Below, in pieces: positions 1 to 43,612 of a stretch of 64,000 nucleotides of DNA. The notes beneath the pieces are model-generated. The model saw only the letters and a list, made by a program, of their open reading frames with translations, was not told the origin of the DNA and did no database searches. The DNA comes from a virus. Location of the stretch: positions 1 through 64,000 of IMG/VR virus record IMGVR_UViG_3300029825_000003; one strand, given 5' to 3'. Position numbers and translations under genes: made by a program. Numbering within the stretch: position 1 is the stretch's first letter; the number at the start of each line of letters is the position of its first letter.

Positions 1-364
1 CAGGATATTTATCTTGTGCTATGTCCATAGCCACACATAGAACAATAATCAAAAGACTAAATATGTAATAATAAATTAAATCGTGAGTAAATGTATCCAT
101 TACCCAAGGAATTGTAAAAGGGTTTTGTTTCGCGGCTCCTATTGAATATACTAATTTTTGAGAAGGAGTCATGTCTTCCAAGTCAGCAGTATTTGCTAAT
201 GTAACACCGTAATTTACTTCTAATAGTTTCTCGGCTTTCATTCGCTCATAGGCTAGTAACCCCTTTGCAACCATCTCCGCACCATCATCAATAGCCCCAG
301 CGCTTACGGGAGTCACAAAAAAAGCAAAAATGAGTATTAAAGTGATTATATGAACATACTTCAT
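1..364 (-). CDS. Signal-peptide, multi-TM membrane protein, truncated by window edge (VirB6/TrbL-like candidate)
   Basis: Manual translation MKYVHIITLILIFAFFVTPVSAGAIDDGAEMVAKG...PFTIPWV...LIYYYIFSLLIIVLCVAMDI; open to base 1; absent from ORF track. Confidence 0.6.
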   Translation of the reverse strand, partial: MKYVHIITLILIFAFFVTPVSAGAIDDGAEMVAKGLLAYERMKAEKLLEVNYGVTLANTADLEDMTPSQKLVYSIGAAKQNPFTIPWVMDTFTHDLIYYYIFSLLIIVLCVAMDIAQDKYP

Positions 365-368
365 AAGA

Positions 369-494
369 TCACCCTATCAGTATTCTTGCTAGAAAGTACA
401 TCCCATAAAGAAATGAAAGGATGTAAAATATAACCCAAACTTTCAAGATTTGTTTAGGACTTATTAATTTAAAACCGTACGCGATCGCCCCCAT
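369..494 (-). CDS. 41-aa hydrophobic membrane microprotein
   Basis: Manual translation MGAIAYGFKLISPKQILKVWVIFYILSFLYGMYFLARILIG; fills the gap between co-oriented genes. Confidence 0.55.
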   Translation of the reverse strand: MGAIAYGFKLISPKQILKVWVIFYILSFLYGMYFLARILIG

Positions 495-502
495 AATTCA
501 CC

Positions 503-892
503 TCAGAATTTGTATGAAGCAAAGTAGAAGTAAAACGCTATACAGGCAGCTAAGACAAACATCCCAAAAGTAGCATGCCCCATCCCAAGATAACCGTCTG
601 ATGCGGATTCTCCATTCCCGTACTTCATTTTAGCCCATTCTTTTATTATTCTATAAAATCCGTATATTAGCACGCCTCCGACAACTAACTTAGTAAGTTT
701 CATTAGGGGTGCTCCTGCTGGAGATTTCTCCACTTCGTTGAGAGATTCAGCAGGACTAAACCATTTCTGATAATCTATTTTCGCACTTGAACCACTGCTG
801 GAATCGTCTTCATCCTCGCCTGCCGATACCGGCAGAGCACATACCATCAACATAACCAATACTGATAGAATAATACTGTGTATTTTTTTCAT
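503..892 (-). CDS. Signal peptide + two-TM hairpin protein (VirB2/TrbC pilin-like topology)
   Basis: Cleavable signal ending VSA-G, then two hydrophobic helices joined by a short charged loop. Confidence 0.55.
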   Translation of the reverse strand: MKKIHSIILSVLVMLMVCALPVSAGEDEDDSSSGSSAKIDYQKWFSPAESLNEVEKSPAGAPLMKLTKLVVGGVLIYGFYRIIKEWAKMKYGNGESASDGYLGMGHATFGMFVLAACIAFYFYFASYKF

Positions 893-985
893 GAGTTCAC
901 CTTTAAACTCTAAAACTCACTAAAAGTATTTAAATCTATTTGAGTAATTTGGTAGTTTACTCAAACATAACTACAAAAAAATATA

Positions 986-3274
986 TTATTGGCGTTTAAA
1001 CCAGCCCCAATAATATTTCATATAAAGAAAGATCACGCCTAACAATCCTAAAAATGGGTCTACCCACAATTCTGTTGTTTTTTCTGGCATCTCATGTTTA
1101 ACTATTTTCCAATCTTTGATTTTTATCTCTTCGTATGGGGTCTTCACAGTTACATCTAATTTATCTTCATCAAATACCCCTAATTCCTTAATCCAATCTG
1201 CTTGATGTGGTATATCCCCTTCCCAATAATCTAAAGTTGTGAAGTTGGTATAAATTACCCCGTTATTGTTTTTATTGCGTTCTCCAACCATTAAATTATG
1301 AACTGATGAATTACCATCATATTCATATGTAATCTTCGTGAGGGATGTTCCATTAGCTTTTACTGCAAAATAAGTCGGGTAAACGTGAATTACCCCTGTT
1401 ATATTTTCAGTTTTTGGGAGAACACTTGGAGCAGGAATTGAATCATTAAACACTGCTACAGATGTATGCTTTTTCCCTTTTTTCCATGTTCCAGTCTTTT
1501 GGTCTTTAACAAGATTGTACCACTTCATTTTTACCGTCAGTGTTGCATAAGCTGTCTCATTCTCAATATGAACATCTACGGTCTTTTCAATTTTAGAACC
1601 TCCTCCTCTCCATCCGATGAGATCAGGTGACTTAATAGCTTCATATTTGACCATGACAGCATCTTCAGAAGGAATATAAGGTACTCCCTCAATGAAAATT
1701 TCATCTTTGAAGCCGATTAACTTGATTCCCCCGTAGATTTTGCCTTTTGAAGTCTTCTCAACTTCATAATTTATACTGTCTGCTGTTTGGCCTGTAACTC
1801 CGGTATCAGTAAATTCTACATCTAAAATACTAAAAATAGAGTCAAATTCCCTCTCAGGAACAGGCTCATAATCAATGCCCTCAACCTTTTCGTCCACTTC
1901 AACATGAGAATCCCATACAGTCTTCTCAGCCGACACATAATCACATTCCCATCCAGATCCAGTCCAACGCCATCCCGTACTTGCAGGATCTATCTTAGGA
2001 TCTTGAATTAAGTCGTTCCCTGAACATTTATTATAATTTCCTCCTGCGTTCTCCCAAAGGACATTTCCTTCAGAAATTATATTATGCGAGTGAGAAAGAG
2101 TATTCGAAAGCCCATATCCCACACCAGACCCTGTATTGCGACCCTTTTTCGAGTTTGTAATAATATTGTCCTTCACGGTAATATCAAAGTCTGCTCCTGT
2201 CTGCCCCGTAGGGAGCCCCTTGACTTTGTATGTCACTACTCCCGCATTTGAACAACCGTCAAAAACATTATTATAAATATTAACATTATGAACTACAGAA
2301 GTCAAGACCCCACCCTGCCAGTCTCTTCCGTCCCATCCAGTACTTAAAAACGCATTGTGGTGGATTTTTATATCCGTCAGGTCTTCATCATAATTATTAT
2401 TATCTCCAACAATCCAAAGCCCCGGCCCGCCTGTGCTCACAAAAACATTATTGCAGATTTCTACATCCATTTCCTGCTTTTCAATTACGTCAACTTGCCC
2501 ACCTGGACCCGCGCTCTCTCTCGCTGTGCAGGTAATGTAATTGTCATGGATGTAAGCGTTATCACTACCGCGAATTCTGAATGCATTGTTTATTCTGCAA
2601 TTGATTTTACAGCCATACATTTCAATATTTGAAGAACGTATAGCAAAAAGAGCTTCGTGCCCAAGCCGTTCAGCTTCAATATTATAAAATTTAATGTTTG
2701 TGCATTTTATAGGTCTGAGGAAATCCCCTAACGAATTTTCACCTGAACAATCGTGAACAGATATCCCATCACAGCCTGTCGGCATGATAAAATTATAGAA
2801 GCCCCTTCCCGTGATTAAGTCAGGTTGCCCACCCGCGTTACCGTCAAAATGTATCCCGATAATCTCAATATTTTTACAGTTATTTGCTCGGATCATCGGG
2901 ATCATCGTTTTTGCGTACCCCTTTGTGGCAGCATGTTTATACTCACTCCCAGAGAGTCTATTTGCATTATCGGGAAGTGTAATTGTTGTTTGTCCCTGCC
3001 CATCGAGTACTGTGTCAGAATCCAAAATGATAGGGTCATTTATACAAAAATCACCAGAGAGATAAACTGTATCTCCTTCTCGGATTGCTTCATTGATTTC
3101 TTTTTGGTCGGCTGCGCCATCTGTTGTCCATGTTTGGTCTCCGCATTGTACAGTCCCTGCTGATGCTAATCCGGTGAAAAATAATAGTAGGATAGGTATC
3201 ATGATGATTGAAAAATGGATCATATTAAGTCGTACTTTCTCAAAGGCTGACACTACATCACCGTGGTACAACAA
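986..3274 (-). CDS. Secreted, C-terminally membrane-anchored right-handed parallel beta-helix protein, disaggregatase-related (likely start 3220)
   Basis: Signal MIHFSIIMIPILLLFFTGLASAG; motifs DGT.DQ.EIN.A, GRGFYNFI, LGHEA, GPGLW, GG..TS...NNVFDG; C-terminal TM. Confidence 0.8.
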   Translation of the reverse strand: MLYHGDVVSAFEKVRLNMIHFSIIMIPILLLFFTGLASAGTVQCGDQTWTTDGAADQKEINEAIREGDTVYLSGDFCINDPIILDSDTVLDGQGQTTITLPDNANRLSGSEYKHAATKGYAKTMIPMIRANNCKNIEIIGIHFDGNAGGQPDLITGRGFYNFIMPTGCDGISVHDCSGENSLGDFLRPIKCTNIKFYNIEAERLGHEALFAIRSSNIEMYGCKINCRINNAFRIRGSDNAYIHDNYITCTARESAGPGGQVDVIEKQEMDVEICNNVFVSTGGPGLWIVGDNNNYDEDLTDIKIHHNAFLSTGWDGRDWQGGVLTSVVHNVNIYNNVFDGCSNAGVVTYKVKGLPTGQTGADFDITVKDNIITNSKKGRNTGSGVGYGLSNTLSHSHNIISEGNVLWENAGGNYNKCSGNDLIQDPKIDPASTGWRWTGSGWECDYVSAEKTVWDSHVEVDEKVEGIDYEPVPEREFDSIFSILDVEFTDTGVTGQTADSINYEVEKTSKGKIYGGIKLIGFKDEIFIEGVPYIPSEDAVMVKYEAIKSPDLIGWRGGGSKIEKTVDVHIENETAYATLTVKMKWYNLVKDQKTGTWKKGKKHTSVAVFNDSIPAPSVLPKTENITGVIHVYPTYFAVKANGTSLTKITYEYDGNSSVHNLMVGERNKNNNGVIYTNFTTLDYWEGDIPHQADWIKELGVFDEDKLDVTVKTPYEEIKIKDWKIVKHEMPEKTTELWVDPFLGLLGVIFLYMKYYWGWFKRQ

Positions 3275-3384
3275 GTACCTATATGTTTAAATACATTTGC
3301 GCATATATGGTATGACCGTGTTGTGTCGATTATTATTTATACAAGATAAAATAAGATAATACTCAAAACCTACAAAGTGATAAC

Positions 3385-3570
3385 ATGGCATACACTGAAA
3401 CCGAAACTGAGATAACTGACACAGTAACGCTTAGAAAACAGAAACAGCGTGGAGCAGGTACTATATACATTAAACCTGAGTTCTTCGAAAGGATAGAACT
3501 GCCGAGAGACGCATCATTGAAAATGACCTATGATAAGATAGAAAAGAAGATAAAAATTGAATCGCTTTGA
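3385..3570 (+). CDS. AbrB/MazE-like small DNA-binding protein
   Basis: GTIYIKPEFFERIELPRDASLKMTYD swapped-hairpin pattern. Confidence 0.55.
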   Translation: MAYTETETEITDTVTLRKQKQRGAGTIYIKPEFFERIELPRDASLKMTYDKIEKKIKIESL

Positions 3571-7908: not shown

Positions 7909-8547
7909 ATGGGAATTGAAGAAAAAAACAAAGTGTCTTTGGGATATGCCAGAACATCCAGAGAAGAACAGAATATTTCAAACCAACTGCGTAAATTGCG
8001 TGAGATTGGGTTAGAGCCTAAAAACATCTATGATGATGAAGGAGTTTCCAGCTTAACACCTGCAAAGAAACGGAAAGGGTTTAAACAAGTCTTTGAACGT
8101 GTGAAAAACGGAGAAGTAGATAAATTATATGTCTTTGAAATATCGAGACTTGGGAGAACATCAGGAGAGTCCTTGCAGCTATTCATAGAGATTGAATCAT
8201 ACGGCACTATGATAATGTCGCTCTCTAAAAATGAAGCATGGACGCAGATAACAGACATCCCCGGAATACGAAATATATTCTCTGCTCTGTTTAGTTGGTT
8301 TGCAGAACTCGAAAGGAATTCCCTCGTTGAACGAACAAAGATAGGTATTGAGAGAGCAAGAGCGGAAGGTAAAACCATAGGCAGACCTGAGAGACAGCCT
8401 GACAAGAAAGAATATCTTAAGTGGAAAAATCAAGGGCTGAAAACTGCTCAGATCGCTAGGGTTATGCAAGTGCCTACATCTACTCTGTATAAATGGGTTG
8501 AGAGATGGGAAGAAGAAGAGAGAGTTAAGAGGAATAAAGAGGCTTAA
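7909..8547 (+). CDS. Small serine recombinase (resolvase/invertase family) with C-terminal HTH
   Basis: GYARTS..EQ catalytic Ser motif, SRLGR, ER...ERT..G...ARAEGK.IGRP, HTH. Confidence 0.95.
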   Translation: MGIEEKNKVSLGYARTSREEQNISNQLRKLREIGLEPKNIYDDEGVSSLTPAKKRKGFKQVFERVKNGEVDKLYVFEISRLGRTSGESLQLFIEIESYGTMIMSLSKNEAWTQITDIPGIRNIFSALFSWFAELERNSLVERTKIGIERARAEGKTIGRPERQPDKKEYLKWKNQGLKTAQIARVMQVPTSTLYKWVERWEEEERVKRNKEA

Positions 8548-22562: not shown

Positions 22563-24635
22563 TCAGATTACCTTATAATATCCCTCCTGGGAACACAGTA
22601 TATCTCCTCTCTCTTTCATTTTCCGAAGTAATTCTTCAGGTTCCTTAATCCCTTCGTTAAGACATTTCTCTATGATTTCCTCCCTTCTTACAGATTTATC
22701 TCTAGTTGTATCTTTATCAGAAATTGATTTTATTATATTGACTATCTTTCGAATCTTCCTAGATTGACTCATAGAAGTCCCACAGGCAAGTACATTCGCG
22801 TCAAGTTCACCGGTTTCCGGGTCTATTCCAACATTTTTAAGATTATTATAAAATATTTCAACTGCTGCCTTCGCGTCTTCTTCTTCAATCATATCAGATA
22901 ATCTTAATCTGGCGTGCGCAGTTGCAAGCCTGTAAGCAGCTTCCAGTGTACGAGCTGTTATAGGGATTGTATCAGTTCTCCCACCTGCAGCCCCTCTTGT
23001 ACCTACAAAAAAGTCTATTATCATTTCCTCGGCTTCATCGGTAAGCACCGGGAAAACATGAGTTCGAATATAAGCAATACATTTTCTTAAAAGTTCAAGG
23101 TCTATTTCTGGTTCAATAATTTCCTTTTTGCCACGTAAGGCCCCTAAAATATGTTTAGCGAGCTTCCTATCAGTATCAGGGTTCGGAGTGTCCCGTAAGA
23201 TAAAAAGTAGGTCCATCCTCGAAATAAAAGCGTCTCCATGTGTGATCTGTTCAGCAATTGGTGTATATTTGTCATACCGCCCATACTTAGGATTTGCAGC
23301 CCCTAAAAAGGCAGTCCGGGTAAAAAGGTCAGCTTTCACAACTTTGTTAATATGTACTATCTGTTGCTCTAATGCTTCATGGATTGAACCTAATTGCCCC
23401 TGCTTCATTTTATCAAGCTCATCGGCACAACATATACCACCATCCGCTAGTGTTAAGGCGCCCGGCTGAATCCACCATTTGCCGTCCATCTCGTCTTTAA
23501 CAGCTCCACCTGTTAAACCGGCCTCCGAAGTGGACCTCCCTGAGAATTCTACGGCACGAGGGGAATATTTAGCTACAAACGCGAGTAATTGACTCTTTGC
23601 TACCCCCGGATCACCTACTAACATCATATGGATATCTCCTCTTTTCCTGGTCCCATCTGGAAGGTCTATAGCCATCCCACCCACCATCTGAAGAGCAAGA
23701 CCAAGTTTAACGTCTTCAAGTCCAAAAATAGAAGGAGCTATAGATCGGAGGATTTTAGCTTTCAGTACTCCTTCCGATGCCCACTGTTGAAATAAATCAG
23801 CTTCTTCTTTTGAAATCTCAATATTTTCATAATCAGAATCAGATTTCTCGATAGAATTAGCAATGAATGTAAAGTCCTGATATTTGCTTTTCTGAGTACC
23901 TATAAGTTTAAGTCGGCCTTTCAAGATCCCAGTTATTATTACTTTATCTCCTGGAGTAGTAGCCCCGGCAATATCATAAGAACACGATACATTAAGAAAT
24001 TCAGGGAGTTTCCCTCTTAGATTCTCAATAGGCTCCTGAATCTTAACATATTGATGATCATATTTAACGGACTCATCTTCTTTAATTTTAAAGTGTTTTT
24101 TATTCCCACATGTAGTGTTTTCACACTCATACGGTTCAATTAAAGAGTCAACGTCATCCAACTGCATTATCTTGTTTACATGCCCACAAATCATACAAAC
24201 ATGTGCAGACTGTTTAAATGCTGGTCTTACTTCAGATGCCTTTGAAATAACGCACCTGATCGCTAAAAACTTTTCAAGGTGAATATCTCTCAATTTAGAT
24301 ATACTAACTTCTGAAGTCTGAGGGAGTCCAGTAACTCTAACTATAACATCAGGGAGATTCTTATCTAGTAAGTCAATCTCGGATATTGCTTCAGTTGCAG
24401 CCTCAAACCATTCAGAAGGAGCATTTAAAAGACGATCTGCAATTTCCTTATTATACAATGCAATATGCCTAAATTCAACATACAAACTTTTTTTATCAGG
24501 ATAAATCTCACTTAAATATAATAGATCATCCCAATATTGTTTTGGTGCTAAATCTTTATGATTTTTCCCTTTATTTACGTATAACCCCCTACTAAAAAAT
24601 ATTTTAAGTTTCTCCTTCAGCATATCGTAATCCAT
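22563..24635 (-). CDS. mcm: MCM replicative helicase (no intein)
   Basis: Zn finger CMICG/CENTTC; Walker A GDPGVAKS; Walker B CADELDKM; AANP; Arg finger SRMD; C-terminal winged helix. Confidence 0.97.
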   Translation of the reverse strand: MDYDMLKEKLKIFFSRGLYVNKGKNHKDLAPKQYWDDLLYLSEIYPDKKSLYVEFRHIALYNKEIADRLLNAPSEWFEAATEAISEIDLLDKNLPDVIVRVTGLPQTSEVSISKLRDIHLEKFLAIRCVISKASEVRPAFKQSAHVCMICGHVNKIMQLDDVDSLIEPYECENTTCGNKKHFKIKEDESVKYDHQYVKIQEPIENLRGKLPEFLNVSCSYDIAGATTPGDKVIITGILKGRLKLIGTQKSKYQDFTFIANSIEKSDSDYENIEISKEEADLFQQWASEGVLKAKILRSIAPSIFGLEDVKLGLALQMVGGMAIDLPDGTRKRGDIHMMLVGDPGVAKSQLLAFVAKYSPRAVEFSGRSTSEAGLTGGAVKDEMDGKWWIQPGALTLADGGICCADELDKMKQGQLGSIHEALEQQIVHINKVVKADLFTRTAFLGAANPKYGRYDKYTPIAEQITHGDAFISRMDLLFILRDTPNPDTDRKLAKHILGALRGKKEIIEPEIDLELLRKCIAYIRTHVFPVLTDEAEEMIIDFFVGTRGAAGGRTDTIPITARTLEAAYRLATAHARLRLSDMIEEEDAKAAVEIFYNNLKNVGIDPETGELDANVLACGTSMSQSRKIRKIVNIIKSISDKDTTRDKSVRREEIIEKCLNEGIKEPEELLRKMKERGDILCSQEGYYKVI

Positions 24636-33958: not shown

Positions 33959-34501
33959 TCAAACCTTCAAATAGATTTCCATTACTCTTCCCCCAATATG
34001 GGCTTTGAGGTCTTCTGAGAGGTTCATTGCGTCCTGTTCAGAGGTACAAATAATTTGAATACGTGCAGGAGTTCCAACAGGCATCTCTTCTTCTACAGGA
34101 GGTTTACCTGGGTCTACGACAGGATCTGTGACAACGTCTTCATACGAATAAGTGTAAGTACACAATTTCATCAGTGCTTTTGCAGTTCCTGACGTTTTAA
34201 GCCGCCATCGAAGAACCACATCCTTTCCGGCACCCACAAAAATATCAACAGCTTTACTTTTCTGCTGATAACTCGTTTTCCCTTCTTCCCATGTTGCAAG
34301 AGGTTCGGCTTTCCCGTCAAGAGTTATCCAAGCGGTAGCAGTTACCCCGAAGGCAGCCGCCAAAGAGCAACCTATGGAAGAAATTCTTATTTTCTTGCCT
34401 TCTTGCCCTCGAATGGTTACGGTTTTTTGTATGCAGCCCGTCTTTGCACAGTCTTTGTATAGTGTTGTGTACACATTTCTAACATCAGTTACTATGGTCA
34501 T
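33959..34501 (-). CDS. Stand-alone beta-sandwich domain homologous to the repeated domain of the tail protein (putative glycan-binding subunit)
   Basis: GKK.R+...C.LA.A..G.TA.A.+T...SY...I+...V.+...+TS.TA..A.M...+TY aligns with two segments of 38789..43612. Confidence 0.65.
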   Translation of the reverse strand: MTIVTDVRNVYTTLYKDCAKTGCIQKTVTIRGQEGKKIRISSIGCSLAAAFGVTATAWITLDGKAEPLATWEEGKTSYQQKSKAVDIFVGAGKDVVLRWRLKTSGTAKALMKLCTYTYSYEDVVTDPVVDPGKPPVEEEMPVGTPARIQIICTSEQDAMNLSEDLKAHIGGRVMEIYLKV

Positions 34502-35751
34502 TATGCACGCCTCAATATTGTTCTTCTAGGATACTTTTCCTTGATAGTCTTAAGCTCATTTTCCGAACAATCAAACATCAAAAAAGCCGGATTTTCAATT
34601 ACTGGCTCAGGTTTTTCAACAACATTATAAAGATCTCTGACATTTCCAGAATATGAATTCCCCTGAGCTATAACTTTTGTATATTTTTGTGGTTTCAAAT
34701 TACACAATGCAGTACCGGAAGCAGTGCCTACCGTATTACTTCTTTTAGTCCCATTGAAAATATTATTTTTCACAACTGCTGAATATCCTGAACCGGAAGC
34801 AGACACCGAAACGTATTCCCCAAACAAAACACCATACCCGAGACATCGACTAAATGTGTTTTGTTCGACCACTACATCATCCCAGCCCTCACATGTTATT
34901 CCGCCTACACCAGGGATATGATGATAATCTGAATCCATATTTCCACAGTTCGAAAATAGATTATTTCTAACTGTCAACCCCGACGCTGCCGATACGGATT
35001 TGTTAGACGTCCCGATAATCCAGATCCCCGGCCCCCATGTGTCATGCACGTCATTATTTTCTATTATAATATTTCTAGAGGACATTCCAGATGTACTATT
35101 TTCTACCTGCATCCCAGGACTCGATGCCCGCCCTCCATTTTTGTTGATAATATAGTTCCCATGCACATGTCCGCCGTCAACGTGTCGGAGCCTGCATCCT
35201 GAATTTGTCCGGAGTTCCACGTAATTATCAAAGACGTCGATGTTTTGGCCTTTATCGATGTATACCGCATCATGCCCACACCGAACGATTTTATTTTTAT
35301 AATAGTTAACATTTTTTACATTTGTCAGGCGTGCGCCGTCCCCCATACTGTCATGGATATGACAATCATGTATTGAGATGCCGGATGCTCCTGAGAGTCC
35401 TATGAAATTGTGAAATCCTTTTCCGAGAATTGTAGTTTGATTATTTGAATTTCCATCAAATGTCAATCCTGAAAACTCAAACCCCGTTCCTCCATAGACT
35501 TTAGAACCGATAACGGGAGTCATCGAGGGAAAAATGGAAGTAGAAATGTGATCTTTTAGCCGGAAGACTGTATTATTTCCGGAGAGTTTCACACCAGGGA
35601 AGAATTTAACAGGGGATGCAATTTCAATATCATTTGTGGAAAAAATAAATTCAGTAGGCGTGTTGCCTGCGGTATTAATGAGATTTTGTAATTTTTGTGA
35701 GGAATCAATAGAAGAACCTACAGAGACGGTTTTCATATTAAGAAGTAACAC
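34501..35751 (-). CDS. Disaggregatase-related beta-helix protein without signal peptide (putative endolysin equivalent)
   Basis: GKGFHNFI, DSMGDG, CGHDA, RTNSGCR, WGPGIW, GGIT...+EQN.F; TAATG-coupled to 33959..34501. Confidence 0.8.
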   Translation of the reverse strand: MLLLNMKTVSVGSSIDSSQKLQNLINTAGNTPTEFIFSTNDIEIASPVKFFPGVKLSGNNTVFRLKDHISTSIFPSMTPVIGSKVYGGTGFEFSGLTFDGNSNNQTTILGKGFHNFIGLSGASGISIHDCHIHDSMGDGARLTNVKNVNYYKNKIVRCGHDAVYIDKGQNIDVFDNYVELRTNSGCRLRHVDGGHVHGNYIINKNGGRASSPGMQVENSTSGMSSRNIIIENNDVHDTWGPGIWIIGTSNKSVSAASGLTVRNNLFSNCGNMDSDYHHIPGVGGITCEGWDDVVVEQNTFSRCLGYGVLFGEYVSVSASGSGYSAVVKNNIFNGTKRSNTVGTASGTALCNLKPQKYTKVIAQGNSYSGNVRDLYNVVEKPEPVIENPAFLMFDCSENELKTIKEKYPRRTILRRA

Positions 35752-38788: not shown

Positions 38789-41700
38789 TTACACCAACAT
38801 GTCGGCATCTCTATATTTCAGTGTCACAATTACGCTAGACGTTGAATCAACAACCGCCCCGAATGTGTTTACCTGCCCTTTGAATATTTTTGGATGTTCA
38901 GCGTCTATCGTTACAAGGCTTGCATACATGAAAATAGAGTTTATCCTGAGTGTATCAGTTCCACCACTCGCAATTTTTAGATGGAATTTTGTAAGACCGT
39001 TCAAGATGCAATCAGTTCCACTGTTCAAGAGCCTATAAGCCTGAGCGTTGCTGATATCCGTTGTTGTATTTCCATCGAGAGGATACCAAGTTCCGGGGCT
39101 TCCCGCGTTATCTTTAGCTATATAGATAGTCGGTGCTCCTGACATAACATTTAGGACAATGTAAGGAATCCCGGTGATTGGGTATTTTGTGTCGAATTTA
39201 TAAATCAAATACCCTGTAGCATTAAACAAGAGCATCTTATAATCATCATAATAAGTAACATAAGCAGAATCGGTAACTGTATATTCATATGCTGTATCTG
39301 CAAAATTTTCACTATACTGATAACTTCCCGTTCCATCTGCGTTTATTGTAATTTTACAGCCAGGTTTCAACTCGTTACAAACTTCCATCCGAGTAAGAGT
39401 ATCAGCCTCGTTATAAATTGAAATAGCAGAGGATGTCACGGAAGGGATAATTTCAGTGTAAGTAAAAGCAAAATTATCCATATATGCTCTGCCGGCTGTA
39501 CTTGAAGTTCTCATATATACTTTGATTGTAACAGTTTCATTCGTTGCTGAATAAATTTCACTATTATATTTTCTTGTAGCATACGAGGAAAGCCTAGTAG
39601 TAGACGAGAATACAACAACCTGCGTTTCCGCACCTGAATTAATGGAAGCGGCTTTTACCGTCACTCTTGCATATGCCGTTAATCCTGAAACGTTAGCAGT
39701 TGCCAATAAACAAGCAAATTGGTCAAGTCTATATTTTTTTCCGTCTGTGAGTGCAGGGAGAACATAAGTAAACTCTAGAGAATATGAAGTCAGATATTCA
39801 GAATGAATATCTGGATCTGTATACGTTTTTGTATCTCCATCGGTTTCATTCGTTCCGCTTTTTGAGGTGATTGCAGTCACTTCAACATCAGGGATAATAT
39901 CTACATGTCCGGTAGTTGTGATGTCCTGCCCTGTAGTACCAAGTTCAAAATCGGAAGCTCTTTCAATCAAAACGTCATCGCAATATACCTTCGCTCCTGA
40001 ATTTAGAGTGTCAACTCCATGAATCCGGATATAGGCATCGACAGGGGCAGTATCAAATCTTATTGTATCCTGCAATTGGGAATATTCACAGTCGGCATCC
40101 CAGAGAAGCTGAGTAATTATCGAATTTCCAGAATAGATATCAACAGATAATTGACCATGAGTTAAACCGGTTACTGCTCCCCATGCACTGACCACGTAAG
40201 AAACCCCTGGATCAAACATAATGTACTGAGTTGAACGCCCGATGTCTTCTGTAAGTCCATCCCCTGATATCTCTAACGCATATAAACCGTCATGTGCAAC
40301 TGAATCACTTCTAGTCTGCCCTTCGCTTTCAAGAGTCCAGCTAGCCGGGGTTTGAATGCCTCCATAATCAGAGGAGGTCATTATCCTGTTATTTGATCCT
40401 GTAGAACTTACTGATACAAACTGATTAAGATCAGAAGAATAACAGACAGAATTCCAGTTATTGTCGGCAGGAGTGTCACAGAGAACCCAATTAGCCGCAT
40501 CATTTGACCTCATTGCTCTGTTTCCTGTACCCGACTTCGCAACACATACCAAAACCGAGTCTTCAGGAGACCATGTAAGCCCCTGCCATGCGTTGTAGGT
40601 ATATGAGACAGTTGCTCCACCTGCTCCATCGAATTCAGTTACTTCATATCCTATAAGGGTAGCATACGCCCTATAAGACGAATTCGAGGATTTCATATAA
40701 CACTGAATAGTTATTGCCTCATTTGCAGCCGTTTCAAATGTTACATCCAGTGTTTTGTCTTCATACGTCTGAGAGACAGAAGAGAATTCAGCCAGAACTG
40801 TTTCTGTTTTTGTTGCGGTTGTTGCGGTAATTTTTATCCATGCTGTTTGTCCGGTCTGTGCGGTCCTTAACTGGCAGAATACCCGGTCAATTCTCCAAAT
40901 GTGATTATTTGTAAGGGCTGCAACTGAGAGAGTAGGCCCACCAGGATATTGAGTAGAATAAGCTGTGACTCCAGAACTATATACCCATCCTTCGGTTGTT
41001 GTAGATGTCGTTGTAGCTACATCAGTTCCAGTTCCAGGGGTAACTATAGACCCACATACAGGAGTTGTCTGCAAGGTCCATTCATCACCATCAGGAGAAG
41101 TTACAATCTGCTGAGTTCCATCTTCAGTACATGCAACAAAAAGACCAAGTGTTTCAGCCCATACAACACTCTTAAACTTCTGAGCAGGAGAAGGTACAGA
41201 AGAAGCTAAATTCCAAACTTCACCATAGTCAACAGAACTCATTATATTTCCATCATAGGAAACCGCAACCAATTTTAGGAGGGATTGTGAGTAACAAACT
41301 GAAACCCAAGTGTTTGCATCTTGGGTATACGTTGCAATTGACCACGTTACTCCACCATCATCTGAATACATGGCTCTGCCAGTACCTGATGATGCAACCG
41401 CGACATAACGGTAGACAAGATCAACGTCGTCCCTAACATAACATACAGAATTCCAGTTGTTATCGGCAGGCGTGGTTCTCGCAGTCCATGTTATTCCATC
41501 GTCTGAAGTCATGCACCTGTTTCCAGACCCTGAAGAAGATACTGCAACCCATCTTCCCGGCAAGAGGTTCCCACCATCAAGCCCGATGGAATACCCCCAC
41601 GCAAGCCCCCTCCAATTATTATTACAATTTGTTGCGCTTGTGAGTCCAGAAGGAACTGACCATGTATCACCGTCAGAGGATATCTGAACGCCATTATTGC

Positions 41701-43612
41701 TCCCACCCGAAGCAACCGCGCAATATTTTGCAAGCTCTCTTGACCATCTCACACAAGTCCATTCAATATCCGCTACACTCGTAGCAGTTGCCCAGGTCAT
41801 CTCGCTTGAAGTAGCCCAATCCTCAAAAGAAGGATTTTTCAAGAGATTACCAGCGTAAGTATCATCTGCGGACCACGTACTCGATCCATATACATGCCTG
41901 CCCCTTACCTTCTGAGAGGCACTTTCTTTGTGAGGTTTTTCCATTTGGTATAAAATAGAATAAGGCTTTGCATTCTCAGGGACATCGGTTGTAAGTCTCA
42001 ATTTAGAACTATGGTCAACCGTGAGACCCCTGCACAGTGTACCCGCATAAGGACCGCCTAATTCTAGCTTAGACTGACCTCTTGAAGTGTCGTACCATGC
42101 AGCCATAACCTCATCTAATTCATCAATAGAAAACGCAAAACAGTCTATGACAAGCCCCGTCCCCTTGAACCCAAAGTCTGTTAAGTTATCTCCTTCTATG
42201 CCCGGAGCTTTCTTTTGTCCTACTGATTTACCACCGTCAACGGCTAATTCTTGCCAATTGAATTTTACCCCGTTTATGTAGCCCTGTCTTGGTTCAGTTG
42301 AATCATAATAATTGGTTAATTCCTCTTGAATAATCCGTATCGGAGGGATATATCTTGTAGTAGGGGTTGTTGTCCCCCCGGTTGAAGATCCTCCTGAATA
42401 TGCACCGTTTGAGGTTGTAGAAGTTGAGATTGGAGTAACTTGATAGTAGTCTCCTGTAACATTTCCGCTTGAATAATTTTCTTCTGCGTATACAGCCATC
42501 TTGGATGGAACCATATTCAAGATTCCGTATCCGCTAACAGGAAGCATACGAGTGGGATCTGTTGCGAGAGTAACCTTCGTATTCAGAATATTGTTATTAT
42601 TTACCTGCATTGTGCAGCCTGAAGCAATGGAATCGAGAACAACAATTCCAGCATTATAACAGCCTGAAATTGTATTATATTCGATAGTAAGCCCATTACC
42701 CCACTTCCAGAGACCAATACCGCCGTTATATTTGATGTTATGCATCCATCCACACGCGGTTATTGTATTATTCCAAATATGAACAGTCTGTGCGGTTGTC
42801 CCGGCTGCTCCATAGGCATCCATCAGGAGAATGCCCACGCCTGCTCCGTCAGTTATTGTATTTTCGTAAATGTTAATATTTTGAGTAAGACGTGTTAAAC
42901 CGTATGAAGCAGGTTCGTTCCCTATCTGAATTGCTCCGTTCCCGTTTGCCCCGGTTCCTGCGTATTTGTGAGTGTCATTATCATGGATGTTAATATTTTG
43001 ACAGTTGTCTAGTCTCACACATGAATTACACTTCTGAACGATGTCATTAGTATAGATATCTCCACCAACCACATCTATGAAGAATACGCCCTCATGTCCC
43101 ATTACGTCAACGTCATTATAATAATATTTGATATTTTCACCATGAGTAAGCCTCAATCCATCCCCTAAACTGTCATGGATTTTCATATTATAGACGGAAA
43201 TATTCTTCACCGGACTACTCGCAGTGCCGGTTATCTGGATACAATTATAATAGGCATCTCCCTCAGATTCCGTTTGATTGGCTCTGTTTCCATCAATCTC
43301 GAAACCGTGAATTTTTATATTGACGGAGGCATGACCATTACCTTCATACTGCCTAATGATTCCAACCATTGAAGCCCAACCAGCATTATTTTTCAGGCGA
43401 AGGCAGGCAGTAGAATCACCGGTTAATTCAGTATTATCCCCTAGGAGGACAGAGGTTTGAATATCGTAAGTACATGGACCTTTTAGGTATACAGTACTTC
43501 CAGGATTAGCGACAGCCGCCGCTAGTGCAGAGTTTATTTCAGATTGGTCATTTGTCCCGTCTACAATGTATGTAGCCCCTGAACCTGAAGGACCTACCGT
43601 GTAAGTAGTCAT
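38789..43612 (-). CDS. 1607-aa multidomain tail protein: disaggregatase-like beta-helix + Dit-like + CBM4/9-like + BNR-type propeller + repeated beta-sandwich
   Basis: Directly downstream of TMP; N-terminus DGTNDQSEINSAL..VYLKGPCTY.I...GDSTA; NLLKNPSFE; SSDG.TW repeats. Confidence 0.82.
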   Translation of the reverse strand: MTTYTVGPSGSGATYIVDGTNDQSEINSALAAAVANPGSTVYLKGPCTYDIQTSVLLGDNTELTGDSTACLRLKNNAGWASMVGIIRQYEGNGHASVNIKIHGFEIDGNRANQTESEGDAYYNCIQITGTASSPVKNISVYNMKIHDSLGDGLRLTHGENIKYYYNDVDVMGHEGVFFIDVVGGDIYTNDIVQKCNSCVRLDNCQNINIHDNDTHKYAGTGANGNGAIQIGNEPASYGLTRLTQNINIYENTITDGAGVGILLMDAYGAAGTTAQTVHIWNNTITACGWMHNIKYNGGIGLWKWGNGLTIEYNTISGCYNAGIVVLDSIASGCTMQVNNNNILNTKVTLATDPTRMLPVSGYGILNMVPSKMAVYAEENYSSGNVTGDYYQVTPISTSTTSNGAYSGGSSTGGTTTPTTRYIPPIRIIQEELTNYYDSTEPRQGYINGVKFNWQELAVDGGKSVGQKKAPGIEGDNLTDFGFKGTGLVIDCFAFSIDELDEVMAAWYDTSRGQSKLELGGPYAGTLCRGLTVDHSSKLRLTTDVPENAKPYSILYQMEKPHKESASQKVRGRHVYGSSTWSADDTYAGNLLKNPSFEDWATSSEMTWATATSVADIEWTCVRWSRELAKYCAVASGGSNNGVQISSDGDTWSVPSGLTSATNCNNNWRGLAWGYSIGLDGGNLLPGRWVAVSSSGSGNRCMTSDDGITWTARTTPADNNWNSVCYVRDDVDLVYRYVAVASSGTGRAMYSDDGGVTWSIATYTQDANTWVSVCYSQSLLKLVAVSYDGNIMSSVDYGEVWNLASSVPSPAQKFKSVVWAETLGLFVACTEDGTQQIVTSPDGDEWTLQTTPVCGSIVTPGTGTDVATTTSTTTEGWVYSSGVTAYSTQYPGGPTLSVAALTNNHIWRIDRVFCQLRTAQTGQTAWIKITATTATKTETVLAEFSSVSQTYEDKTLDVTFETAANEAITIQCYMKSSNSSYRAYATLIGYEVTEFDGAGGATVSYTYNAWQGLTWSPEDSVLVCVAKSGTGNRAMRSNDAANWVLCDTPADNNWNSVCYSSDLNQFVSVSSTGSNNRIMTSSDYGGIQTPASWTLESEGQTRSDSVAHDGLYALEISGDGLTEDIGRSTQYIMFDPGVSYVVSAWGAVTGLTHGQLSVDIYSGNSIITQLLWDADCEYSQLQDTIRFDTAPVDAYIRIHGVDTLNSGAKVYCDDVLIERASDFELGTTGQDITTTGHVDIIPDVEVTAITSKSGTNETDGDTKTYTDPDIHSEYLTSYSLEFTYVLPALTDGKKYRLDQFACLLATANVSGLTAYARVTVKAASINSGAETQVVVFSSTTRLSSYATRKYNSEIYSATNETVTIKVYMRTSSTAGRAYMDNFAFTYTEIIPSVTSSAISIYNEADTLTRMEVCNELKPGCKITINADGTGSYQYSENFADTAYEYTVTDSAYVTYYDDYKMLLFNATGYLIYKFDTKYPITGIPYIVLNVMSGAPTIYIAKDNAGSPGTWYPLDGNTTTDISNAQAYRLLNSGTDCILNGLTKFHLKIASGGTDTLRINSIFMYASLVTIDAEHPKIFKGQVNTFGAVVDSTSSVIVTLKYRDADMLV

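Follow-up and report, generated by a model that had tools for sequence, protein, structure and literature searches.

What is a row of secreted and membrane proteins, several of them reminiscent of a conjugation apparatus, doing in the genome of a tailed archaeal virus? The question is raised by bases 1–3274 of the stretch of DNA analysed here (the window, 64,000 nucleotides), which is bases 1–64000 of the 73,512-base IMG/VR record IMGVR_UViG_3300029825_000003; window base n is contig base n. A first-pass annotation of the window had taken this edge for the start of a locus resembling a type IV secretion system (T4SS). That reading holds up when the locus is followed past the left edge, where the next genes encode a VirB6-like protein, a protein with two transmembrane (TM) segments in the VirB3 position and a VirB4-family ATPase. 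The best overall explanation, to which we assign a probability of about 0.6, is that the locus encodes a minimal T4SS-derived membrane translocation machine of a tailed Methanosarcina virus, most likely used to move DNA between cells in contact.

What lies to the left of base 1 is the contig's other end, because the first 98 bases recur at the end of the record. This terminal repeat (1..98) is identical to contig 73414–73511, after which there is one stray base. The repeat arises where the assembly overlaps itself, the genome (approximately 73.4 kb) being circular or terminally redundant. The record is labelled linear in IMG/VR, yet is 100% complete by CheckV; the label is probably due to the stray base after the 3′ repeat copy. 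On the circularised contig, the open reading frame (ORF) at the edge reads intact through the end junction to give a protein of 339 amino acids (aa), and because this protein is collinear with homologs from other assemblies over 318–349 residues, we consider the junction genuine. The end repeat and the junction-spanning ORF thus bear out the circularity that the first-pass annotation had proposed checking. They also amend its description of a multi-TM protein running off the window: there is indeed an ORF at the edge, but no unknown DNA lies beyond it, as the gene continues across the circular junction.

The first-pass annotation had placed four ORFs at this edge, and the ORF listing confirms all of them, co-oriented on the minus strand within 1–3274 and at the same coordinates. 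Gene junctions are tight or overlapping along the whole minus-strand run, so we treat it as a single operon. Bases 1–3274 are the promoter-proximal half of an eight-ORF operon that wraps around the genome ends. Seven of the eight ORFs are conserved, and their order is surface beta-helix protein, hairpin protein, polytopic protein, 2-TM protein, ATPase, soluble protein and anchored protein (genes 1 to 7 in what follows; “the module”). Each of the small genes has a GGTGA ahead of it.

The T4SS assignment begins with gene 5 (contig 69296–71917, minus strand), whose product is an 873-aa soluble VirB4-family ATPase with an extra C-terminal domain. In NCBIfam it matches VirB4_plasma (E 6.8e-16), VirB4_CagE (2.8e-12) and TraC (4.7e-6) over residues ~216–620. 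We collected 26 homologs and scanned 22 of them against NCBIfam at E <= 0.001. All nine families matched at this threshold are VirB4-type: VirB4_CagE in every sequence (best 1.7e-21), TraC in 20 and VirB4_plasma in 19 (best 2e-28), with the CD1110 type in 9, CedB in 3 and TrbE also represented. The motifs invariant in the 22 sequences are Walker A (G293-G294-S295-G296-x-G298-K299-x-T301), Walker B (D535-E536) and the arginine/glutamine motifs R555/E556/R558 and Q569/D570. A single-sequence phmmer search of the PDB gave no matches; the best PDB profile match is the Thermoanaerobacter VirB4 domain 4ag5 (E 0.0015). When 72,556 plasmids were searched using tblastn, the only matches were 30 conjugative Listeria plasmids. 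For example, the matched ORF in pLM5578 sits between VirD4-like and pLS20_p028 (VirB6-like) genes on one side and an NlpC/P60 hydrolase gene on the other, with a MobP2 relaxase gene nearby. Two unannotated 21-kb records named “Listeria phage” (OR848116.1 and OR846771.1) share this VirB4-like ORF and may be plasmid fragments that were deposited as phages.

In the last ~150 residues of the ATPase (contig 69296–69850) lies an additional conserved domain, in which the pattern E...(P/A)D...E-x-E/H...K..Q is invariant. On visual inspection it resembles PD-(D/E)xK nucleases, so a nuclease role may be envisaged. The C-terminal 184 aa have no Pfam match, the C-terminal domain has no meaningful PDB profile match, and this part of the protein scores 0.83 or less in a language-model atlas, with a faint CoiA_nuc lead only. 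The N-terminal 260 aa likewise have no Pfam match.

Gene 3 lies two genes upstream of the ATPase gene and is divided by the record's ends, with its 5′ part at 1..364 (minus strand, ORF 2–364 joined on the circularised contig) and its 3′ part at contig 72758–73413 (minus strand, joined across the junction and collinear with homologs). Its 339-aa product is polytopic, with a signal peptide and 5–6 TM segments. We used AlphaFold to model a homolog (from locus L004), and TrwI/VirB6 of R388 took the top five ranks when the model was compared with 350,542 chains using Foldseek (probability 0.85–0.96, E 0.06–0.17). VIA-align gave the same protein Z scores of 11.8, 11.3 and 10.9, with a root-mean-square deviation of 4.2–4.5 Å over 220–229 of 261–272 residues, while the next unrelated row had a Z of 8.3, approximately 3 Z units below VirB6. 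A VirB6-like fold is therefore what the model suggests, and it agrees with the position of the gene.

Gene 2 (503..892, minus strand) encodes a 129-aa protein which we regard as a candidate VirB2/CedA1-type component, based on its topology, on family alignments and on Pfam matches at the level of the family. A signal peptide occupies residues 1–24, with predicted cleavage after PVSA, and is followed by an acidic, Ser-rich linker and then by a hairpin of two helices (60–91 and 97–126) separated by a 5-residue loop. The signal-peptide-plus-hairpin pattern is kept across 24 family members; their signal peptides end in A-x-A-type sites, and conservation is highest in the loop between the helices, G-x-x-x-S-A-x-x-G. 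TrbC/VirB2, matched by 8 of these 24 relatives (best E 4.6e-4), and T4SS_pilin, matched by 6 (best E 6.8e-5), are the two Pfam families at the top. Atlas leads point the same way, to T4SS_pilin, TrbC and DUF3852 clusters at 0.87–0.89 (below the 0.9 mark), as does a weak NCBIfam match to TcpD_dom (E 0.015). The family is narrow, with 14 matches among 1.84 billion representatives. A profile search of the PDB with the family gave no pilin match, and an hhalign comparison with the VirB6-like family, which tested for a relation of the CedA1/CedA type, gave a probability of 0.9%, i.e., no relation. The first-pass annotation's pilin reading of 503–892 is consistent with the topology and draws weak sequence support, via family members only; no non-pilin family, which would have spoken against it, was matched. 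A pilin role is thus plausible for the gene 2 product.

Upstream of gene 2 is a 93-nucleotide spacer (893..985, minus strand) containing an oligo-T run, a TATA-like TTTAAATA at 934–927 and a GGTGA at 901–897 just upstream of the ATG. The spacer may hold a promoter, which would fit separate, strong expression of a structural subunit. On the other side of gene 2 is a 41-aa ORF (369..494, minus strand) with one TM segment and a GAGGTGA ribosome-binding site. The first-pass annotation counted this peptide as part of the operon, but it is genome-specific and not a conserved part of the module: no homolog is present in 11 related loci, where the gap measures 9–39 nucleotides vs 138 here. It is either a lineage-specific insertion or a spurious ORF, and its status as a gene is uncertain. 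We also considered it as a conserved CedA2-like component and rejected this because the 11 relatives lack it.

Gene 1 (986..3274, minus strand) encodes a secreted, surface-anchored protein listed at 762 aa, with Pfam matches to Disaggr_assoc (1.5e-32) and Beta_helix (3.7e-5). The TTG given as its start is probably not the real one: with an in-frame ATG at 3223, the protein has 745 aa and a clean, canonical signal peptide, MIHFSIIMIPILLLFFTGLASA. The signal peptide is followed by a disaggregatase-related beta-helix, a beta-rich C-terminal region of ~300 aa and a C-terminal hydrophobic anchor (one TM segment). The C-terminal 303 aa gave zero Pfam matches. Most related loci have a beta-helix gene ahead of the module. 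Alignment of the protein with its nearer relatives is confined to the C-terminal ~300 aa (38–47% identity), while with the distant L036 and L037 it is full length (36–37% identity). Among the nearer relatives, it therefore looks as if the enzyme head is exchangeable and the C-terminal ~300 aa is module-specific. The genome encodes three Disaggr_assoc/beta-helix proteins in all. Besides gene 1, they are at 34501–35751, near lysis-like genes, and at 38789–43612, where the domain forms the N-terminus of a 1607-aa tail protein.

The remaining module genes are all on the minus strand of the circularised contig. Gene 4 (contig 71917–72768) overlaps the ATPase gene by one base; its product, of 283 aa, has a 2-TM hairpin at the N-terminus as well as a cytoplasmic domain. 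The latter has no Pfam match, and a PDB profile search with the protein returned nothing meaningful; its position and N-terminal topology are what suggest a VirB3 role. Gene 6 (contig 68686–69258) encodes a soluble protein of 190 aa and gene 7 (contig 68342–68689) an N-terminally anchored protein of 115 aa.

Does this machine belong to the virus or to a neighbour? The same circle carries a set of viral matches: Terminase_6N/6C (6.6e-15 and 3.1e-8), PhageMin_Tail (tape measure, 1.6e-36), Phage_TTP_12 (tail tube, 2e-8), Phage_capsid_4 (2.2e-5), Mu F (6e-4) and a tail terminator (3.3e-13), as well as a scaffold protein, YopX, a weak portal match (Portal_Mu, E 0.035) and a separate lysis-like cassette. 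The module does not stand out from its surroundings, with a GC content of 0.380 vs 0.385 for the rest of the genome and a tetranucleotide distance of 0.119 vs a median of 0.122 for windows of the same size. The longest repeat common to its flanks is 12 nucleotides, which is chance level, so no att-like repeat is present. The composition break and att sites near 3.3 kb that the first-pass annotation would have expected of a foreign element are therefore both missing.

At least 16 metagenomic contigs have the same seven genes in this order, with ATPases 37–87% identical to the window's copy, and five of these contigs carry Caudoviricetes hallmark genes (terminase, capsid or tail). They are the window's own genome (G000), which has TerL, MuF, tape measure, tail tube and capsid genes beside the module on one circle; IMG/VR contig G003 (57 kb; loci L023–L025), with a terminase gene and with tail, lysis-like and early genes homologous to those of this virus; G001 (31 kb), with a terminase and a 65% identical capsid protein; G002 (L029), where tail genes abut the module directly; and L032, where TerL (68% identical), portal-like (59%) and MuF-like (54%) genes are within 5 kb of the module. 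Because the position of the module relative to structural genes differs (near terminase, portal and MuF genes in L032, near tail genes in G002 and near small early-type genes in the window's genome), we conclude that it moves as a cassette within related viruses. The first-pass annotation's alternative, a separate conjugative element abutting the virus, does not survive the finding that the module is inside at least five related contigs with virus genes, at differing positions. It is a cassette of a Methanosarcina tailed-virus lineage, not a neighbouring element. The host is assigned as Methanosarcina because of the three Disaggr_assoc proteins and because homologs occur on contigs of Methanosarcina metagenome-assembled genomes (MAGs). 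Taking gene content and linkage together, it is very likely that a T4SS-derived machine is present and belongs to the virus.

Some relatives of the module have other surroundings. Several adjoin Orc1/Cdc6, primase-polymerase or insertion sequence (IS) genes, with no viral genes in view. The copy at L033:6900–13300 has no beta-helix gene and a truncated VirB6-like gene, is beside glycosyltransferase, TatA and NikR genes, and looks decayed; the copy at L035:7787–15187 is beside IS66, IS1 and IS4-type transposase genes. Other Methanosarcina elements may therefore carry the module as well, e.g., orc plasmids, which were recently described and carry disaggregatase-related genes (bioRxiv 10.64898/2026.10.06.756670). 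Two related loci come from MAGs of other taxa, L017 (CAZALZ010000023.1) from one binned as “Gammaproteobacteria” and L018 (JBMNON010000028.1) from one binned as “Patescibacteria”; given their Methanosarcina-specific gene content, both are probably mis-binned.

Elsewhere in the genome, a small serine recombinase of 212 aa (resolvase plus helix-turn-helix, 7909–8547) is the only recombinase in the complete genome, and an MCM helicase (22563–24635) serves replication. The first-pass annotation had noted a resolvase and an MCM without an integrase in the window; both genes are confirmed, and there is no tyrosine integrase in the whole record. Ahead of the operon is a divergent intergenic region (3275..3384) with a TATA-like TTTAAACATATA ~60 nucleotides upstream of the ATG at 3223, and this region may act as the module's promoter. 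A 61-aa ORF on the plus strand (3385–3570) diverges from it; this ORF has no Pfam match and could encode a regulator of the module.

Of the systems known to us from the literature, the module is closest to the archaeal Ced and Ted systems and to the T4SS cores of monoderm bacteria. Ced (Sulfolobales, Aeropyrum) and Ted (Thermoproteales) are T4SS derivatives made only of VirB2-, VirB6- and VirB4-like parts, and they have no sequence similarity to each other (PMC9905601). The module shares with them an archaeal setting, the minimal set of VirB2-like hairpin, VirB6-like and VirB4-like proteins, and the lack of VirD4 and relaxase (PMC9905601). In both cases the components are too diverged for ordinary sequence searches, and no similarity of the module's proteins to CedA, CedA1, TedA or TedC was detectable. 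TedC is cleaved by signal peptidase I (PMC9905601), and the same is predicted for the gene 2 product. However, Ced and Ted are chromosomal systems by which a host imports DNA, whereas the carriers of the module are tailed viruses whose host is a euryarchaeal methanogen. The module also goes beyond them in having a surface-anchored enzyme predicted to degrade polysaccharide, the 283-aa 2-TM protein, two more genes and the C-terminal domain of the ATPase.

The monoderm cores (Listeria pLM5578, the Tcp system of pCW3, ICEBs1 and CD1110-type ICEs, i.e., elements both integrative and conjugative) provide the best family matches for the ATPase and its only plasmid tblastn matches, and they are built alike: VirB4 is accompanied by a VirB6-like protein, by small membrane proteins and by a hydrolase dedicated to the envelope, which in pLM5578 is NlpC/P60. 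Their leads for the gene 2 product (TcpD, T4SS_pilin and DUF3852) are weak. In contrast to the module, monoderm T4SSs always have a VirD4 coupling protein and a relaxase, and their hydrolase acts on peptidoglycan, whereas the module has a disaggregatase-type beta-helix, an archaeal host and a virus as its carrier. The pNOB8-type plasmids of Sulfolobus and thaumarchaeal ICEs (PMC6563490) resemble the module in having VirB4/TrbE, VirB6 and VirB3 homologs and no recognisable relaxase. They differ in having a pair of ATPases (VirB4 and VirD4/TraG) and in not forming virions, whereas the module has a single ATPase on a genome with capsid, terminase and tail genes. Bacterial phage-plasmids such as P1 and N15 (PMC12282955) are tailed viruses able to persist without integrating, and like them the window's genome has its own replication helicase (the MCM), a small serine recombinase and no integrase. 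Partition genes were not found in the window's genome, so its plasmid-like maintenance is conjectural. According to the same review, which is about plasmid mobility, phage-plasmids travel between cells as phage particles, conjugation being the alternative strategy of other plasmids; a T4SS-like cassette is not part of their description (PMC12282955).

Several observations weigh against our explanation, and they concern different parts of it. The ATPase scores 25–57 bits vs curated full-length VirB4 cut-offs of 567–643 bits, because only its P-loop domain (residues ~216–620) aligns. This P-loop domain also matches, more weakly, the defence ATPase mad8 (6.6e-12, PADLOC), the PHROG 2666 “terminase” (2.3e-8) and Pfam HerA DUF87 (0.0013). 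Because of the low scores and these generic matches in other libraries, the ATPase, judged from its sequence, is a divergent VirB4-clade relative and not a member of any curated equivalog. (We dropped a defence-system reading of the module, for which PHROGs and PADLOC gave only generic P-loop matches, all of them to the ATPase alone.) The VirB6 match comes from a low-confidence model (pLDDT 58) of a homolog that is 44% identical to the gene 3 product, and Z scores of 11–12, i.e., below 13, are attainable by chance for helical bundles. Searches of Pfam and NCBIfam and a PDB profile search found no sequence link between the gene 3 product and VirB6, and none of 60 homologs has a precomputed Pfam domain. 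The window's own 129-aa gene 2 product has no significant Pfam family match, and its conserved inter-helix loop ranges from acidic to neutral. The model of this protein is of low quality (pLDDT 56), showing a helix for the signal peptide, an acidic linker that is disordered and a hairpin, and fold searches with it return unspecific helical hairpins (E > 1 in Foldseek; Z <= 6.9 in VIA, where ties number in the hundreds).

Other such points concern what the genome lacks. The complete record has no VirD4-type coupling protein (PF02534 has no match, and PF01580 matches the VirB4-like gene only, weakly), no second FtsK/HerA-type ATPase (none among the 85 remaining ORFs) and no relaxase or Rep-type family (Pfam, all ORFs of at least 60 aa). 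The first-pass annotation had suggested looking left of base 1 for VirB4, VirD4 and a relaxase; the first is there, as a VirB4-family ATPase, but the other two are not. By the usual (bacterial) definition, the module is therefore not a conjugative system. Archaeal conjugative elements without recognisable relaxases are known (PMC9905601, PMC6563490), so the absence of a relaxase makes a canonical conjugative system less likely but does not count against a system that works like one. In addition, no ParA- or ParB-type partition genes were found in the genome, the virus could be purely lytic, and some module copies have no viral genes in view (L033, L035).

These points leave room for other explanations. 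The one nearest to ours accepts the T4SS-derived machine and gives it a task other than exporting the viral genome, such as Ced/Ted-like DNA import, protein or effector translocation, adhesion or aggregate remodelling. In the import version, DNA from neighbouring cells might, for instance, feed recombination or repair in either the viral or the host genome. We consider this family of explanations rather unlikely. In its favour, the Ced/Ted importers have exactly the module's composition, being limited to VirB2-, VirB6- and VirB4-like parts and lacking both VirD4 and relaxase (PMC9905601). Those are chromosomal host systems, however, and a benefit to viral spread explains more simply why a virus lineage has kept such a cassette across ATPase identities of 37–87%, along with a matrix-degrading enzyme of its own. 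Similarly, 3 of the 22 ATPase homologs match the CedB model, but this is a minority match: VirB4 families from conjugative elements score better and match all members. Effector translocation can appeal to known adaptations of T4SSs for protein secretion, but no effector-like genes are evident in the operon.

It is less likely still that the module has a generic FtsK/HerA-type ATPase at its core and is a membrane device assisting the ordinary viral cycle, e.g., in superinfection exclusion, genome entry or exit through the envelope, or virion release from aggregates embedded in methanochondroitin; we regard this as improbable. It would account for the P-loop matches to non-T4SS ATPases (mad8, PHROG 2666, HerA DUF87), for membrane partners that have no significant sequence link to T4SS families and for the resemblance of gene 1 to the virus's own tail and lysis depolymerases. 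It does not sit well with the NCBIfam families common to all 22 ATPase homologs, all of which are VirB4-type, or with VirB6 as the top structural match of the adjacent polytopic protein and VirB2-type pilins at the head of the Pfam list for the gene 2 family. In its gene order (hairpin, polytopic, 2-TM and ATPase genes, and close by a wall hydrolase gene) the module resembles monoderm cores such as pLM5578, and the virus already has a packaging terminase and a separate lysis-like cassette. Finally, a separate conjugative plasmid or ICE could abut the virus or have been mis-joined to it, making the contig a chimera or tandem. The module does lie at the contig ends, where assembly errors concentrate, and some of its relatives have no viral genes in view. 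Against this are the 98-nucleotide end overlap and the intact 339-aa ORF that spans the junction and is collinear with homologs; the absence of a GC or tetranucleotide break, of flanking repeats above chance and of an integrase; and four other independent assemblies that join the module to homologous terminase, portal, capsid or tail genes. An artefact or an abutting element is consequently very improbable.

We thus return to a minimal T4SS-derived translocation machine of the virus itself, for which the parts suggest the following mechanism. The surface-anchored disaggregatase-type enzyme would locally open the methanochondroitin matrix, by analogy with the wall hydrolases of monoderm T4SSs (VirB1, CwlT, TcpG). 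The signal-peptide-processed hairpin protein, being of the VirB2/CedA1/TedC type, would be the pilus or channel subunit, and the VirB6/CedA-like polytopic protein would form a channel or filament together with it. Attachment of the motor to the membrane would fall to the 2-TM protein in the VirB3 position. The motor would be the VirB4/CedB-type ATPase, whose nuclease-like C-terminal domain could process DNA and so replace the absent relaxase and coupling protein, and the two small conserved proteins (genes 6 and 7) would be accessory. The substrate and the direction of transfer we infer: the most likely role would be contact-dependent movement of DNA between aggregated Methanosarcina cells, most plausibly of the viral episome itself.

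That the machine transfers the viral genome between cells is possible, although we rate it at somewhat below even odds. The fuller proposal, a virus with two routes of transmission, is doubtful enough that we offer it tentatively: it would spread both by virions and by a T4SS-like apparatus, free of relaxase and coupling protein, that passes the viral genome between aggregated cells with the assistance of the nuclease-like domain and the disaggregatase. Transfer by cell contact and the virus-plasmid lifestyle, both put forward in the first-pass annotation, are conjectural.

To our knowledge, the only archaeal systems with conjugation-type machinery are Sulfolobales plasmids, thaumarchaeal ICEs and the chromosomally encoded Ced/Ted importers, and a full-text literature search turned up no paper that connects tailed archaeal viruses with VirB4 or T4SS genes. 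A conserved T4SS-derived cassette in virion-forming viruses would extend the T4SS/Ced/Ted family to Methanosarcina, a mesophilic and genetically tractable methanogen. The module, with one ATPase, no VirD4 and no relaxase, would offer a minimal system for studying archaeal DNA transfer. If the proposed role is true, the virus could spread from cell to cell inside multicellular aggregates without virions, which would bear on both gene flow among methanogens and their control by viruses.

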